From an uncultured Chloroflexia bacterium (GTDB lineage: Bacteria; Chloroflexota; Limnocylindria; Limnocylindrales; CSP1-4), in the NCBI GenBank assembly GCA_963740825.1, contig CAVUFD010000002.1, forward strand, positions 4,267 to 68,266: DNA of 64,000 nt, in the 5' to 3' direction. Below the pieces are notes generated by a model. It saw nothing but the letters and a program-made list of their open reading frames with translations. It did not search any database and was not told where the DNA came from. Below, in pieces: positions 27,704-37,223 of the stretch; position 1 is the first letter of the stretch, and the number at the start of each line of letters is the position of its first letter. The position numbers were made by a program, and so were the translations under genes.

Positions 27704-28861
27704 TCAGGCCGTCGGCGCGGTGGCCTCGATCGGCTGCGAGAGGCCCACGCCGCGGCGGATCGGCGACACCAGGTACAGGATCGAGCCGATGACGATGATC
27801 GAGAACACGCTGATCAGGCGGTCCACCAGGACGATGGTCGTCGCCTCCTGGGTCGGGAGCCCGTAGGCGAGGGTCAGCACCCCGACCACGCCGAGCTCGA
27901 CCGTCCCGAGGCCCGCAGGGCTGAGCGGCACGGCGGTCAGCAGGGACCCGATGAAGGCGACGAAGAACGCGCCGGAGATGCCCATCGAGACGCCCGGCAG
28001 GCCCAGCGCCTGGATCACCAGCCACAGGCGCAGGCCCTCGGTCACCCAGATGAGGACGGTCAGGATCGCGAGGGGCCCGAGCGTCCGCCGGTTGATCGAG
28101 AACAGACCCTCCTCGAACCGGTCGTAGAACTCGAGCGCCCGCTCCGGGAGCGGGAGCTTGCCGAGGATCGCCCGGCCGAAGTTGCGCACGGCGAACAGGA
28201 AGCCCGCGAGCACGACGATGACGCCGATGCCCAGGACGGCGACGAACTGGATCTCGGGCGGGAAGCCGGTCCGGAAGCTCCAGAAGCCGGCCAGCAGGCC
28301 CAGGATCGCGATCGCGAACAGGTCGAAGATCCGCTCGATGAAGATCGTGCCCAGCGTGCGGGAGCCCGACACATCGGCGTTGATCTTGAGCAGGAACGCG
28401 CGGTAGAGATCGCCGAGCTTGGCCGGCACCAGGCAGTTCACCGTCCACGACAGGAACAGGATCTCGGTCGCGTCCTTCGTCCCCACGCGCATGCCGGCGC
28501 CCTTCAGCAGGAGCGCCCAGCGCGCGCCGCGGATCGGGAAGCCGGCGTAGAACACGAGGAAGGCGGCGATCAGGAGCAGCTTGTTCGCGCTGGCGACGCT
28601 GTTGGCCAGCTCCGCGAAGTCGACGTTCAGCGCGACCCGGAAGATCAGGACCAGCAGGACCAGCGGGACGCCGAGGGAGATGATCGTCCGCGGCTGCCGC
28701 AACCGGGCACCGAGCGAGATCTGGCCGCCATCGTCGTCGGCGCGGCCGTTGCCACCCTCGGTGGGGCGCGGCGTGCGGGTCGATCCGGCCTGGCGGGCCA
28801 GCGGGTTGGCTGCGGGGATCGCAGGGGTGGCGTCGGCGTCGGACACGGGCGGTTCACTCAT
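27704..28861 (-). CDS. lysylphosphatidylglycerol-synthase-TM-region (UPF0104/flippase-like) family membrane protein
   Basis: Eight predicted TM helices. The start MSEPPVSD overlaps the stop of the upstream PHP gene (ATGA). Confidence 0.7.
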   Translation of the reverse strand: MSEPPVSDADATPAIPAANPLARQAGSTRTPRPTEGGNGRADDDGGQISLGARLRQPRTIISLGVPLVLLVLIFRVALNVDFAELANSVASANKLLLIAAFLVFYAGFPIRGARWALLLKGAGMRVGTKDATEILFLSWTVNCLVPAKLGDLYRAFLLKINADVSGSRTLGTIFIERIFDLFAIAILGLLAGFWSFRTGFPPEIQFVAVLGIGVIVVLAGFLFAVRNFGRAILGKLPLPERALEFYDRFEEGLFSINRRTLGPLAILTVLIWVTEGLRLWLVIQALGLPGVSMGISGAFFVAFIGSLLTAVPLSPAGLGTVELGVVGVLTLAYGLPTQEATTIVLVDRLISVFSIIVIGSILYLVSPIRRGVGLSQPIEATAPTA

Positions 28862-29568
28862 GTGCTGGCACCCGCGTTTCCGGACGGGTCGTTGGAGACC
28901 CGCCTGTTCCCCCGGGCGCGATTGACGAGCTTGGCAATCGGCGTGAGCGTCCGGACGATATACGAGGCACGGCCGGGTACAAGCGAGACGTTGGTCAGGG
29001 CTGCCATCAACCCTTCGGCGGTGGAGGGATTGCCCTCGAGCACGGTGTACGCGACGCCGACCTCCACGACGCTGTGGGCGTCGGACACCGCGATCCCCGG
29101 CAGGCCCATCTCGAGCGCGAACGCGGCGGCCTGCTCGTTGCCCGATCCACCCACCACGCGCGCGTTGTGGGATTCGACCCAATCGACGAGCGGCGCCATG
29201 GCCTCCAGCCGCGGGTCCTTGAGCATCGAGCCCCGGAACCGGTCGAACGGGTGCGGGATCCCGACCAGGCCGCCCTGCGACCGAATCTCGTCGATCGTGT
29301 CCCGCGCGGGCAGCCCGGGGGCCACGGCGCGCTCGAGGAACAGCCCGATCAAGTCGCCGTCGAGGGTCTTGATCTCCTCGCCGACGATGATCGTGAGGTC
29401 CGCGGGCGCCGCGTCACGTGCCCGGAGCGCCCCCTCGATCCGGTCATGGTCGGTGATCGCGAGATGCGTCAGTCCCCGCGTCGCCGCGGCCTTCACCACG
29501 CTCTCGGGATTGGCGAGGCTGTCGAACGACACCGACGTGTGGCAGTGCAGGTCGACGAACGCCCTCAC
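28858..29568 (-). CDS. PHP-domain metal-dependent phosphoesterase
   Basis: FVDLHCHTSVSFDS ... HLAITDHD ... IPHPFD ... VSDAHS. Confidence 0.75.
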   Translation of the reverse strand: MRAFVDLHCHTSVSFDSLANPESVVKAAATRGLTHLAITDHDRIEGALRARDAAPADLTIIVGEEIKTLDGDLIGLFLERAVAPGLPARDTIDEIRSQGGLVGIPHPFDRFRGSMLKDPRLEAMAPLVDWVESHNARVVGGSGNEQAAAFALEMGLPGIAVSDAHSVVEVGVAYTVLEGNPSTAEGLMAALTNVSLVPGRASYIVRTLTPIAKLVNRARGNRRVSNDPSGNAGAST

Positions 29569-29648
29569 GCCAACCCCCCGATGAGAGAACGTCCCTCGAC
29601 GGCAGCAGACGCGTTGACCTCGCAGGGGAGGTGGCGCGGGCTACCGGA

Positions 29649-29683
29649 CGCGATCTCAGTCCCCCCAGGGACTGGAATCGCGG
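29649..29683. repeat. short palindromic element GCGATCTCAGTCCC-ccca-GGGACTGGAATCGC (family shared with the atpD-atpC spacer)
   Basis: 7-bp stem hairpin between mreB and the PHP gene. Its flanks GATCTCAGTC / GACTGGAATCG recur at 32892-32947 and, inverted, at 32704-32760. Confidence 0.5.
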
Positions 29684-29722
29684 AGGATGCCCACGTCGCC
29701 AGCCCGCCCTGAACCACGGGCC

Positions 29723-30721
29723 TCAGATCTGCTGCACCAGGGACTTCTTGAAGAAGTCGAAGTGCTCGAGGGCGAGGCCCGTGCCGAGGGCGACGCAGTT
29801 GAGGCTGTTCTCGGCGACGTGGCACGGGACGCCGGTCACCTGGGTCAGCAGCTTGTCGATGTTGCGCAGCAGGGAGCCGCCGCCGGACATGACCATGCCC
29901 TTGTCGATGATGTCCGAGGACAGCTCGGGCGGGGTCTGCTCGAGGACCGTGCGGACCGCGGCCACCAGCTGCTGGAGCGGGACCTCGATCGCCTCCATGA
30001 CCTCGGACGAGGTGATCGGGATCGTGCGCGGCAGGCCCGCGATCAGGTCGCGGCCCCGGACCTCCATCGTCAGCTCGCGCTCGAGCGGCAGCGCGGCCCC
30101 GATCGCGATCTTGACCTCCTCGGCGGTCCGCTCGCCGACCATCAGGTTGTACTTCTTGCGGATGTAGGTCGCGATCGCCTCATCGAACTTGTTGCCGCCG
30201 ACGCGGAGGCTGTTGGAGACCACGATGCCGCCGAGCGCGATCACCGCGATCTCGGACGTGCCGCCGCCGATGTCGATGATCATGTTCCCCGACGGCCCGC
30301 TGATCGGCACGTTGGCCCCGATCGCCGCCGCCAGCGGCTCCTCGATCAGGAACGCCTCCTTGGCGCCCGCCTTCAGCGCCGCATCGCGGACCGCGCGCTT
30401 CTCCACCGAGGTGACGCCCGCGGGGACGCTGATCATGACCTCGGGCCGGCCGACGCCGATGCGCCCCTTGGTGGCCTTGCCGATGAAGAACCGGAGCATG
30501 GCCTCCGTGATGACGTAGTCGGCGATGACGCCGTCCTTCATCGGCCGGATGGCCTGGATGTTGCCGGGGGTGCGGCCGATCATCTCGCGGGCCTCTTCGC
30601 CCACGGCGACGATGCGGTTGTCCTCGCCGACCGCGACGACCGAGGGCTCGGTGATGACGATTCCCTTGCCCTTGACGTAGACGATGACGTTCGCGGTACC
30701 GAGGTCGATTCCAATCTTCAT
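29723..30721 (-). CDS. mreB: rod-shape determining protein MreB/Mbl
   Basis: [16 protein letters not shown] ... [20 protein letters not shown]. Confidence 0.9.
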
Positions 30722-30830
30722 GGGGCGGTGAATGCTACTCCGGGTGGCGTGGTCGCCCGGGACGGCGACCGGGGAGGTGATGGATCGGTGGGGGGCCGGG
30801 GCGACGGCTGGGCCTCCGTCGCGGGCGGTG

Positions 30831-32162
30831 TCAGGCCATGTCGGCCGAACGGGTGATGCTCGCACCCAGCTGCTGGAACTTGCGGTCGATGTTCTCATAC
30901 CCCCGCTGAACGTGATGCGCGCCGTGAATCAGCGAGGTGCCCTCGGCGGCCAGCGCGGCCAGGATCAGGGACGCGCCGGCGCGCAGGTCCGAGATGTCGG
31001 CCTCGGCGCCGCGCAGGGTCGCGGGGCCGAGGATCGCCGCATGGTGGGCGTCCTCGATCTCGATCCGGGCGCCGAGCTTGCCGAGCTCCGCGAGCCATTC
31101 GAGGCGGTCCTCGAAGATCGCCTCGTACACCCGGGAGGTGCCGTTCGCCTGCGTCAGCAGGACGCAGGCGGGTGGCTGGAGGTCGGTCGCCAGGCCCGGG
31201 TAGGGCGCGGTCTCGATGTCGCACGCCCGCAGGTCGCCCGGGCGCACGCCCGTGGCGTCGATCTCGATCGAGCGCTGCCCGCAGGCCACCGGGACGCCGA
31301 CCCGGCCCAGCAGCTCGACCAGCGACTCGACGTGCTCGCAGGGGGCGTTCTCGAGCGTGATCCTGCCGCCGGTGACGGCGGCCGCGACCAGGAACGTGCC
31401 GGTCTCGATCCGGTCGGAGATGACGGTGTGGTCGGCGCCCCGGAGCCGGCGCTTGCCGTGGACCTCGATCGTGTCCGGGCTCGTGCGCTTCACGTCGGCG
31501 CCCATCTTGTGCAGGAAGTCGATGAGGTCGTCGACCTCCGGCTCCTGCGCCGCCGGCCGGATCACGGTGTGGCCCTCCGCGAGGGTCGCGGCGAGCATCG
31601 CGTTCTCGGTGCCCATCACGGTCACCTGCGGGAACGTCACCTCCCCGCCGTGGAGGCGACCCGGCGCCTGGGCGAAGTAGTAGCCGTCGCGATAGGCGAT
31701 CTCGGCGCCCAGCGCCCGCATGGCGTCGACGTGCAGGTTCACCGGCCGGCGCCCGATCCGGTCGCCGCCGGGGTTGCTGATGATCACCCGCCCGAAGCGC
31801 GACAGGAGCGGCCCGAGCAGGATGAACGACGCCCGCATCTTGGCAGCGGCCTCGAGCGGGACGAACAGCCAGTCGACGTCGCCCGCGGCGACCTCGTACA
31901 CGCCGTCGGCCGGGTGGTCCACGACGACGCCGAGGTCCCTGAGCACCTCCGCCATCACGCGGACGTCCTCGATCTCGGGCACGTTCTCGAAGCGGCACCG
32001 CTCGCCCGTGAGCGTCGCGGCGGCGAGCAGCTTGAGGGCGGCGTTCTTGGCGCCGCTCACGTGGACCGTGCCGCGCAGGGGCCGCCCGCCCTCGATGCGG
32101 AACGCCTCAGGCGGTGGGACCTCGGGGTTGAACTCCCAATGGAAAGGTCTTGCGTCTGCCAA
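30831..32162 (-). CDS. murA: UDP-N-acetylglucosamine 1-carboxyvinyltransferase
   Basis: [15 protein letters not shown] ... catalytic Cys region [10 protein letters not shown]. Confidence 0.9.
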
Positions 32163-32231
32163 TTAACTCTCCGAGAGCCGAGGCGACGCTCCTGCGAGCC
32201 ATCGGCGCGAGGACGTTGCGTCGGCCATGGA

Positions 32232-32660
32232 CTAGGCGCCGCGCCTGGGGCCCTCTCGATGCCGACGCTCCGCCACCCGGATCCGGAGCAGGGCCGACTG
32301 GAGCTGGGCGCGCGCGGCGGCCAGGTCGGCACCCTCGACGTAACCGGACTCGAGCGCCCGCTCCGCCTCGCGACGGGCCTCCTGGGCACGCTCTAGGTCG
32401 ATCTCGGAGGCCAGGTCGGCCGTCTCCGCCATGACCACGACCTTGTCCGGCCGGACCTGGAGGAAGCCGCCCGCGATCGCGAAGCTCTCCTCCTCGCCGC
32501 CCTTCCGGATCTTGAGCTCCCCCACCCCGAGCAGGCTCACCAGCGGCGTGTGATGCGGCAGGATCCCCAGCTCGCCCTCGGCACCGGGCACGAGCACCAT
32601 GTCGACATCATCTTCGTACGCCAGCCGCTCCGGCGTCACGATCTCGAGGTGGAGTGTCAT
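32232..32660 (-). CDS. atpC: F1 ATP synthase epsilon subunit
   Basis: MTLHLEIVTPERLAYEDDVDMVLVPGAEGELGILPHHTPLVS. Confidence 0.9.
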   Translation of the reverse strand: MTLHLEIVTPERLAYEDDVDMVLVPGAEGELGILPHHTPLVSLLGVGELKIRKGGEEESFAIAGGFLQVRPDKVVVMAETADLASEIDLERAQEARREAERALESGYVEGADLAAARAQLQSALLRIRVAERRHREGPRRGA

Positions 32661-32703
32661 GTGCGTGCCCCGTTCCAGCGGCCGCTCTCGGCGTCAGGCT
32701 GTC

Positions 32704-32947
32704 CGGCCAATTCCAGTTGCCGTCGCCGGCTTCGCGCGGCTCGGCCACTGAGATCGCCGGCCATCCTGCCGCCTACGCGGCCGCTTGGCAGCACCCCCAA
32801 ACCCCTCAACGCGAGATCGACGCGCCCGAAACGTGGCGTCCACGTGGGGGGAGGGCAGAAGGCACCCGCCTCCGCGTAGCCGGTTGGACGGCAGCCGATC
32901 TCAGTCGCCGAGGCGCGCGCAGCCGCCAATGGCGACTGGAATCGGAC
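32704..32947. repeat. inverted pair of about 52-bp palindromic elements inside the 328-bp atpD-atpC spacer
   Basis: 32892-32947 is GCCGATCTCAGTCGCCGAGGCGCGCGCAGCCGCCAATGGCGACTGGAATCGGAC. 32704-32760 is its reverse complement at about 80% identity. A further inverted repeat CCGCCTACGCGG / CCGCGTAGCCGG (32769/32866) lies between them. Confidence 0.55.
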
Positions 32948-32988
32948 GGCCGGCCGGCCGGCGAAAGCGGAGGCGAAGACCACGGCAC

Positions 32989-35291
<2,303 letters not shown>

Positions 35292-35487
35292 CGCGAGTCT
35301 CCGCCCTCGTCGGCCGCCGCCCGGCCGGCGCGCGGCGGCTCGCCCACGACGGCTCTCCTACGCCCCTCTGGAGTGTTTGAGCGCGATGCGGCACCCGCAG
35401 ATCCCACGTCACCACCGCAAGGCGTAGACGGGCGTCGTTCGAGCCGGTTCCGGCCACAACACCACGCCCAGGCGTAAACGAGGCACG

Positions 35488-35595
35488 TTGGGCGGCGGGT
35501 TGGGCGGCGGGTTGGGCGGCGGGTTGGGCGGCGGGTTGGGCGGCGGGTTGGGCGGCGGGTTGGGCGGCGGGTTGGGCGGCGGGTTGGGCGGCGCG
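35488..35595. repeat. 12-bp microsatellite (TTGGGCGGCGGG) x 8 perfect + 1 imperfect copy, in the 400-bp atpA-atpG intercistronic spacer
   Basis: Perfect head-to-tail copies. The plus strand is G-rich, carrying GGG tracts separated by 2-4 nt. Confidence 0.9.
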
Positions 35596-35690
35596 CGGCA
35601 ACCCGAGAAGCGGACGCGCGGCGCGCGCACCAACGACTCGCCACCCGCGGGGGCGGACGAGCCGGGCGGCGGAGCCGGACGCGACCACCG

Positions 35691-37223
<1,533 letters not shown>

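Follow-up and report, generated by a model that had tools for sequence, protein, structure and literature searches.

An apparently locus-bound inverted pair of long predicted hairpins between atpD and atpC in uncultured Chloroflexota

Here we describe the spacer between atpD and atpC in a window of 64,000 nucleotides, the whole stretch of DNA analysed, from an uncultured Chloroflexia bacterium (contig CAVUFD010000002.1). The neighbourhood lies entirely on the minus strand in the order atpA-atpG-atpD-atpC-murA-like-mreB-PHP, with atpA at 37313-35691 and atpG at 35291-34431. Upstream of the gap is atpD, encoding the F1 beta subunit (32989..34401; Pfam ATP-synt_ab, E = 2e-73), and downstream is atpC, encoding the epsilon subunit (32232..32660; Pfam ATP-synt_DE_N and ATP-synt_DE). 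A murA-like gene of the EPSP_synthase family follows (30831..32162; PF00275 on the orthologous product), then mreB (29723..30898 as the ORF is listed, although the true start is probably later; Pfam MreB_Mbl, E = 3e-138) and a PHP-domain gene (28858..29568; Pfam PHP and PHP_C). The gap at 32661-32988 measures 328 bp, as had been read from the sequence in an initial annotation, and the Pfam assignments settle the identity of the genes on either side. It forms a single large imperfect palindrome, in which 32682-32780 pairs with 32872-32970 (99 nt, 79% complementarity, 91 nt between), the sole inverted repeat of its size in the 64-kb window. The two inverted copies of about 52 bp noticed earlier are both present within it, but they extend to these 99-nt arms, and the outer inverted repeat that had been listed apart (32769/32866) exists as a portion of the same arms. 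A 25-nt inverted repeat, 80% complementary, also links 29356-29380 inside the PHP gene with 29579-29603 in the mreB-PHP spacer (GCCGTCGAGGG... / ...CCCTCGACGGC); it may be a product of chance.

Each arm is organised around a gapped core. The core motif CGATCTCAGTC...GACTGGAATCG lies at 32896-32944(+) and 29651-29680(+), with a diverged form, CGATCTCAGTG...CAACTGGAATTG, at 32708-32756(-); two matches to the gapped pattern occur in the window, where 100 shuffles predict 0.00. Arms at the atpD-atpC junction (type B) and at the mreB-PHP junction (type A) are 92-125 nt long (about 100 nt typically), with 29 consensus pairs. With R1, a covariance model built from 25 type-B arms, the arm adjoining atpD (32862..32986; canonical strand +, antisense to the genes) scores 82.5 bits (E = 3e-15); its hairpin spans about 32867-32975 around the core at 32896-32944 and folds at -83.5 kcal/mol (z = -7.3), or at -76 kcal/mol (z = -3.6) on the mRNA strand. 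The arm adjoining atpC (32666..32790; canonical strand -, the mRNA sense) scores 78.2 bits (E = 2.6e-14), its hairpin of about 32677-32784 enclosing the core at 32708-32756 and folding at -74.1 kcal/mol (z = -4.8). The centre between them (32785..32866) is poorly conserved and, in gene sense, passes from C-rich sequence through a small hairpin (ACGTGG-ACG-CCACGT) to G-rich sequence. In the mreB-PHP gap, where a shorter member had been noted, a type-A arm occupies 29619..29717 (+, antisense to the genes) with its core at 29651-29680; it reaches 35.5 bits with R1 and folds at -57.7 kcal/mol (z = -4.8). Taken on either strand, the window's arms fold at -58 to -84 kcal/mol, with z from -3.0 to -7.3. 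The window thus holds a full type-B pair but a single, mreB-proximal type-A arm, while type A is paired in other genomes.

Relatives were sought with the core in two scans. One covered one genome per species with a gap of N{8,38}, which missed the commonest short form (6-nt gap), and returned 19 loci, 6 of them real relatives; these all come from Chloroflexota MAGs of high GC (~0.70) that carry the labels Limnocylindrales, Chloroflexia or Chloroflexota. The other covered metagenome contigs with a slightly degenerate pattern and a gap of N{6,36}, giving 52 loci and 27 real relatives. Mapping the window's proteins onto these loci placed 32 of the 33 related ones at atpD-atpC or mreB-PHP of the same conserved cluster, in host genomes with AtpC 83-99% identical. 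The exception, L032:679-781 (Ga0126307_10310129), is a type-B-like arm 25 nt downstream of the C-terminus of pyruvate,phosphate dikinase (ppdK), antisense as are other upstream arms; around positions 830 and 1190 this contig also has another repeat, a direct one (..GGATCGC.CTGCC..CGCCTTGGCG..). The layout of the pairs is constant: antisense for the arm beside the upstream gene, sense for the one beside the downstream gene, and with the GTAG sides facing the centre, so that all pairs are tail-to-tail, with cores 150-260 nt apart. R1 picked out the three known arms and no other in the 64-kb window, and across 223 kb of related loci it gave no convincing hit away from the two junctions. Dispersal through housekeeping operons, as the initial annotation had supposed, is therefore not borne out. 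Nor is its suggestion that IS110-family elements target these sites, as none of about 45 spacers, all of 378 nt or less, holds IS110, another insertion or an extra gene. Among the loci examined no gene is flanked by two cores, and the spacers display no consistent flanking direct repeat or target-site duplication. A phage origin was considered and set aside, the core having no match in viral contigs; a literature search with sequence strings and atpD/atpC stem-loop terms returned nothing relevant. Judged from these comparisons, the family is real yet locus-bound rather than dispersed, the insert clade would correspond to high-GC uncultured Chloroflexota (Limnocylindria-like MAGs), and type A is best read as a paralogous pair at the second junction.

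Folded on itself, every arm makes a rod of some 29 consensus pairs. From the outside inward, the type-B rod begins with 7-9 bp of outer stem, followed by a 3 x 4 internal loop in which GUA faces GARA; further stems and purine-rich loops then lead to a core stem with a constant C.A/U.G step and a variable apex, which is either short (C-CGCA-G) or bears a 21-nt longer self-complementary insert. In the long form this apical insert (32914-32926 in the window, and at the same position in other long-form arms) contains GCGCGAAGCC or GCGCGCAGCC. The flanks differ by type, reading ..GCGTAGCC..core..GACAGCC..GGCGAGAGC.. in type B and ..GGCTACCGGAsG-core-CsGGAGGATGCC.. in type A. The tetranucleotide GTAG is present in 20/25 type-B arms, with GCAG, GTGG or GGAG in the others, its GUA unpaired at the foot of the inner hairpin and enclosed by the outer stem; type-A arms have CTAC where type B has GTAG. 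A K-turn or sarcin-ricin identity for the GUA/GARA loop, weighed by eye, does not fit its 3 x 4 geometry or the variation at the second purine, and no Rfam family matched positions 28000-35000 on either strand at E up to 1.

Base pairing is conserved well beyond the level of shuffled and slid controls. Across the 25 type-B arms 94.1% of cells form a standard pair, against 78.8% in shuffles and 27-40% in slid controls, and both sides have changed in 16/29 pairs; across 17 type-A arms the corresponding values are 93.1%, 80.4%, 23-44% and 14/29. In neither type do any of 500 shuffles reach the observed values. The selection on structure previously proposed from a single GCC/GGC to CCC/GGG exchange in the apical stem is thereby upheld, that exchange being real and one of many such changes. 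The initial annotation had tied its case to further copies elsewhere in the genome and covariation beyond three members; essentially no further copies exist elsewhere, yet covariation among orthologues is abundant. From the alignments, arm pairing appears to be under selection in both types, as do unpaired motifs, namely the core CGAUCU/GAAUCG with its C.A/U.G mismatch and the type-B GUA/GARA internal loop. The minimum-energy fold of the window's own RNA is a different one, an arm-to-arm duplex at -214.9 kcal/mol. We rejected this duplex as the functional fold, since it is not kept across genomes: arms of a pair are 68% identical to each other against 67-71% between genomes, and their outer stems are unlike each other while covarying inside each arm. 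Because the arms are not kept complementary, and RNAalifold resolves divergent genomes into two local hairpins, the duplex in the window is probably incidental.

A further feature of the spacer, overlooked in the initial annotation, is an open reading frame that bridges it. At atpD-atpC this frame runs for 111 codons (32657..32992, minus strand) across both hairpins, its GTG start overlapping the atpD stop (GTGA) and its TGA stop overlapping the atpC start (ATGA); at mreB-PHP a frame of 50 codons (29565..29717, minus strand) starts 5 nt after the mreB stop and its TGA overlaps the PHP GTG start. Among atpD-atpC spacers of 140-365 nt 18/23 are bridged, against 7.25 expected from dinucleotide shuffles of the interior, and only 3/23 stay bridged when the interior is reverse-complemented. 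The mreB-PHP spacers are bridged in 8/10 cases against 4.05 expected with the interior shuffled (P about 0.009), and in 5/10 with the interior reverse-complemented. The genomes are related and these statistics not fully independent, roughly 16 lineages being represented, 13 of them bridged. In L006 and L075 a -1 and a +1 indel together restore the bridging frame, and in the centre stop codons are weakly depleted (0.64 per 100 codons in the coupling frame, 1.27 in the other sense frames and 1.97 in antisense). The encoded sequence behaves otherwise. Between close relatives the three codon positions have changed to an even extent (46/103, 61/106 and 59/105), GC by codon position is flat (0.71/0.70/0.75 in the atp bridging ORF vs 0.67/0.43/0.97 in atpD), with GC3 of 0.75 against 0.90-0.98 in real genes, and Pfam gives no match to the ORF; for these reasons a conserved protein was rejected. 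In addition, the frame relative to the conserved core varies by genome (reading RFQS, DSS or IPV), and the C-terminal peptides of the window and L006 differ. With the frame kept while substitutions are even, GC flat, the core frame variable and Pfam silent, what is maintained would be translatability, not a peptide. The flat codon usage argues against heavy translation. Some AtpC homologues are called with N-terminal extensions (P0006, 248 aa; P0064, 170 aa; P0057, 157 aa), where gene callers run upstream into the open spacer frame.

Inserts of another kind occur one junction upstream. The atpA-atpG gap (35292-35690, 399 nt), absent in several relatives, contains a tandem array at 35487-35593 of a perfect 12-nt repeat in 8.9 copies, CCGCCGCCCAAC in gene sense, which reads (AAQP)n. 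Within 35284-35694 a single ORF of 136 codons takes up the whole gap, its ATG overlapping the atpA stop and its TAG falling 5 nt inside atpG. At the same junction L030 (180 nt), L060 (162 nt) and L074 (258 nt) carry inserts unrelated to it. Each of the four lengths is divisible by 3 and each insert stays open in the coupling frame, so that the rule seen at the hairpin junctions, of a frame kept without a conserved peptide, holds here too and agrees with what is described for MIRUs (PMC12548453).

The element is not invariant among relatives. In contigs whose AtpC is 100% identical to the window's, third positions of atpC diverge by 20-25% and spacer identity to the window is 62-89%; over its full length the spacer changes about as fast as synonymous sites do. 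A variant inner core (..GCCTCAGGCCCGAAGGGCATGCAAGC..) with the same outer stem and GUA/GARA loop occurs in the atpD-atpC spacers of L031, L056, L075 and L077. In L075 and L077, again with AtpC 100% identical to the window's, the variant arm sits beside a canonical atpC-proximal arm, a mixture that suggests allelic replacement by recombination. At L078:12-99 the 5' half of the core and the apex are deleted between two GGCG direct repeats, in what looks like slippage across the hairpin; at L074:2778-3000 the centre is deleted, and the L076 spacer has diverged beyond recognition. In L072-74, where AtpC is 100% identical, the type-A arm has shrunk to its first 7 nt; L018 and L081 lack it. As close relatives have lost or swapped arms, the element is dispensable in some lineages and prone to indels. 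Conversely, core, loops and pairing persist in lineages with AtpC only 83-90% identical, which neutral decay would not permit. Most safely stated, what fills the gap is a long hairpin module doubled as an inverted dimer, old and passed on by vertical inheritance, with a fixed place at two junctions of a single cluster.

Several explanations were weighed for this persistence. A genuine small protein of about 110 aa encoded by the spacer, with the nucleotide repeats incidental, we regard as scarcely credible: it would account for an open frame with coupled start and stop in most genomes, and gene callers do sometimes extend AtpC into the spacer (as in P0006), but the even substitutions, low GC3, shifting core frame, differing C-terminal peptides and lack of a Pfam family all speak against it, and what is conserved is explained by base-pair covariation. 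An independent small-RNA gene or divergent pair with its own promoter, possibly antisense to the 3' end of atpD, is nearly as improbable. The strong conserved structure would suit it, as would the canonical form of the atpD-proximal arm lying on the antisense strand. It fits poorly with the weak conservation of the centre, the maintained sense frame and the empty Rfam search, and the signals it needs were not seen: no sigma-70-like promoter was found in the centre and no terminator-like site in either spacer, the hairpins having no U-tract and being followed by a C/U-rich stretch without a U-run. An invertible promoter was discarded for a related reason, no promoter being found and the C-rich to G-rich polarity of the centre being the same in all spacers. 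A role at the DNA level is unlikely, though somewhat less so; here cruciforms or single-strand folds, one arm per strand, would be sited where heavily transcribed units end and serve as binding sites for a protein, for example gyrase or some other topology factor, a recombinase or a priming factor. The two-fold symmetry of the pair does put the same strand-specific form on opposite strands, and the upstream arms follow highly expressed genes (atpD, mreB and ppdK). The canonical strand, moreover, folds at lower energy in 23/26 type-B arms, largely because its internal loops are purine-rich, and the slippage-type deletion across the L078 hairpin is of a piece with folding in DNA. Yet this asymmetry of energy is unmatched by GU and AC counts, which are 15:13 and 5:7 when pairs are chosen symmetrically, as the union of both strands' predictions; a GU:AC count of 12:1, which would favour folding of the canonical, antisense strand, was an artefact of using the structure predicted on that strand. 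With the counts symmetric, the hairpin could act as DNA or on either transcript. The apices point to different molecules depending on the strand. On the canonical strand all arms have C-G-[C/A]-A-G (CGCAG or CGAAG), and in the long form GCGAAGC occurs, which as DNA makes a very stable mini-hairpin, while the apex on the other strand, C(UGCG)G or UUCG-like, is typical of RNA. A DNA-level role does not predict the maintained sense-strand frame, and we know of no protein partner for it.

A more serious contender, although still a doubtful one, is a palindrome of selfish DNA, either a foldback MITE or a giant REP/REPIN of the GTAG type, of old entry and without host function, whose core would be kept by recognition through a trans-acting, RAYT-like transposase or by gene conversion, and whose open frame would be the host's condition for tolerating an insert in an operon, as with MIRU and Rickettsia palindromic elements. 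In its favour, GTAG stands at the foot of the inner hairpin in type-B arms, and the variants GCAG, GTGG and GGAG may be set beside the REP degeneracies GYAG and GTRG (PMC3733652). The tail-to-tail dimers, with variable spacer and apical insert length, recall GTAG-3 and GTAG-14, and GTAG REPs are known in Chloroflexi, some nested in palindromes and some translated in genes. A third site exists, with one arm after ppdK, and arms have been lost, truncated or replaced in close relatives; in L019 the apical insert of the type-A arm matches that of the same genome's type-B arm over 24 nt, which suggests exchange between copies. Against it, there are only 2-5 arms per genome, where REP and MITE families number tens to hundreds, and these hold the same positions and orientations in genomes whose synonymous sites are saturated with change; an element with neither many copies nor a host function ought by then to have lost its pairing and core. 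Type-A arms, besides, have no GTAG at the equivalent place, no locus has two arms flanking a gene, a target-site duplication is not evident, the loci examined show no link to a transposase, and viral contigs hold no match.

We favour, tentatively and short of conviction, a role in cis at the level of the polycistronic mRNA: the hairpins would throttle or partition expression where demand falls, and translation would prevent polarity. This preference follows from three regularities: the upstream arms always come after genes of abundant products, the arms keep one geometry relative to the stop and start codons, and the sense-strand frame is preserved. We infer that the insert is transcribed and translated and that it affects expression. 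Under this model the insert would be co-transcribed with the operon, and ribosomes leaving atpD (or mreB) would read through the hairpins and be delivered to atpC (or PHP). The two very stable hairpins would throttle the flow of ribosomes and polymerase, or set segmental mRNA stability, at junctions where expression must presumably drop, from three beta subunits to one epsilon in the first case and from abundant MreB to an enzyme in the second; polarity would be averted by ribosomes translating through them. From the start codon to the outer stem there are 8-12 nt; fresh initiation there would be hindered, whereas ribosomes arriving from the upstream gene would not. Against this model stand the symmetric GU and AC counts, the lack of a U-tract after the hairpins and of a sigma-70-like promoter in the centre, the flat codon usage, and the loss or alteration of arms in close relatives. 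In a bolder version, which we think improbable, the pair would be a translation-sensing device: ribosomes close behind the polymerase would melt both hairpins and hand over to atpC, lagging translation would let the hairpins form and cut off or destabilise atpC-murA-mreB, and the module would have been reused at mreB-PHP. Were this so, a conserved core that binds a factor would link ATP-synthase stoichiometry and the expression of cell-wall and cytoskeleton genes to translational capacity.

The element matters on either outcome. If the hairpins set the beta:epsilon ratio or insulate atpC-murA-mreB, they would represent a new way of tuning the expression of an essential operon; if they do not tune expression, they would be a clean example of a host constraining selfish DNA within its operons. 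A REP-like palindrome can, it seems, persist for long as a low-copy, junction-bound feature rather than as a dispersed family. The clade concerned comprises abundant uncultured Chloroflexota of soil and freshwater, in which inserts into the atp operon are seemingly tolerated only if translatable and coupled at both ends. In practical terms, such spacers confuse gene callers, AtpC being sometimes extended into them.

Among known systems, the nearest in form are REP sequences of the GTAG superfamily, for which the tag degeneracies GYAG and GTRG have been described (Di Nocera et al. 2013, PMC3733652) and which in Chloroflexi are in some cases nested in small GC-rich palindromes and in others translated inside genes (PMC3733652). 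The likeness extends to imperfect palindromes with compensatory stem variants, to a site just downstream of coding regions between co-directional genes, to inverted tail-to-tail dimers with a variable spacer, and to apical parts that vary in length and are self-complementary, as in the GTAG-3 and GTAG-14 families. The differences are as plain: arms are about 100 nt here against 20-40 for REP, they number 2-5 per genome at fixed orthologous junctions and are not dispersed by the tens to hundreds, an additional outer stem of 7-9 bp closes around the GTAG, which type-A arms lack, and no associated RAYT gene was seen at the loci examined. MITEs share the inverted arms, but the consistent flanking direct repeat and the high copy number are wanting. 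Of the REP/MITE-like structured family first proposed, the structured palindromes stand, and REP-like traits are seen in the inverted dimers between co-directional genes and, for type-B arms, in the GTAG at the foot of the inner hairpin; the MITE affinity is not supported. MIRUs offer another parallel, being intercistronic operon inserts with an ORF coupled to the downstream start by a -4 overlap, ATGA or GTGA, through which translation is handed on (PMC12548453). The spacer ORF described here likewise ends in overlap with, or abutting, the neighbouring stop and start codons. MIRUs, however, are multi-copy direct tandem units of 46-101 bp in Mycobacterium and not long hairpins, and 32661-32988 contains an inverted pair and no tandem array; the 12-nt array of the window's atpA-atpG gap is nearer to the MIRU style than the hairpin element is. 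Rickettsia palindromic elements (Ogata et al. 2000) are reportedly hairpin-forming inserts of 100-150 bp with one frame open and translated, and are said to lie inside protein-coding genes in dozens of copies. As palindromic, hairpin-forming inserts kept open in one frame they resemble the present element, from which they differ in their unrelated sequence, intragenic position and copy number. Lastly, intercistronic mRNA hairpins set differential operon expression in the E. coli malE-malF REP, in Rhodobacter puf and in the atpH-atpA coupling structure. Stable stem-loops at junctions where product amounts differ are what our working model supposes too; the known ones are single and short, in untranslated spacers, whereas here two inverted hairpins of about 100 nt would lie inside a putative translated bridge. 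Among intercistronic palindromic elements, the present one is unusual in its size, its low copy number, its fidelity to a locus and its maintained bridging frame.
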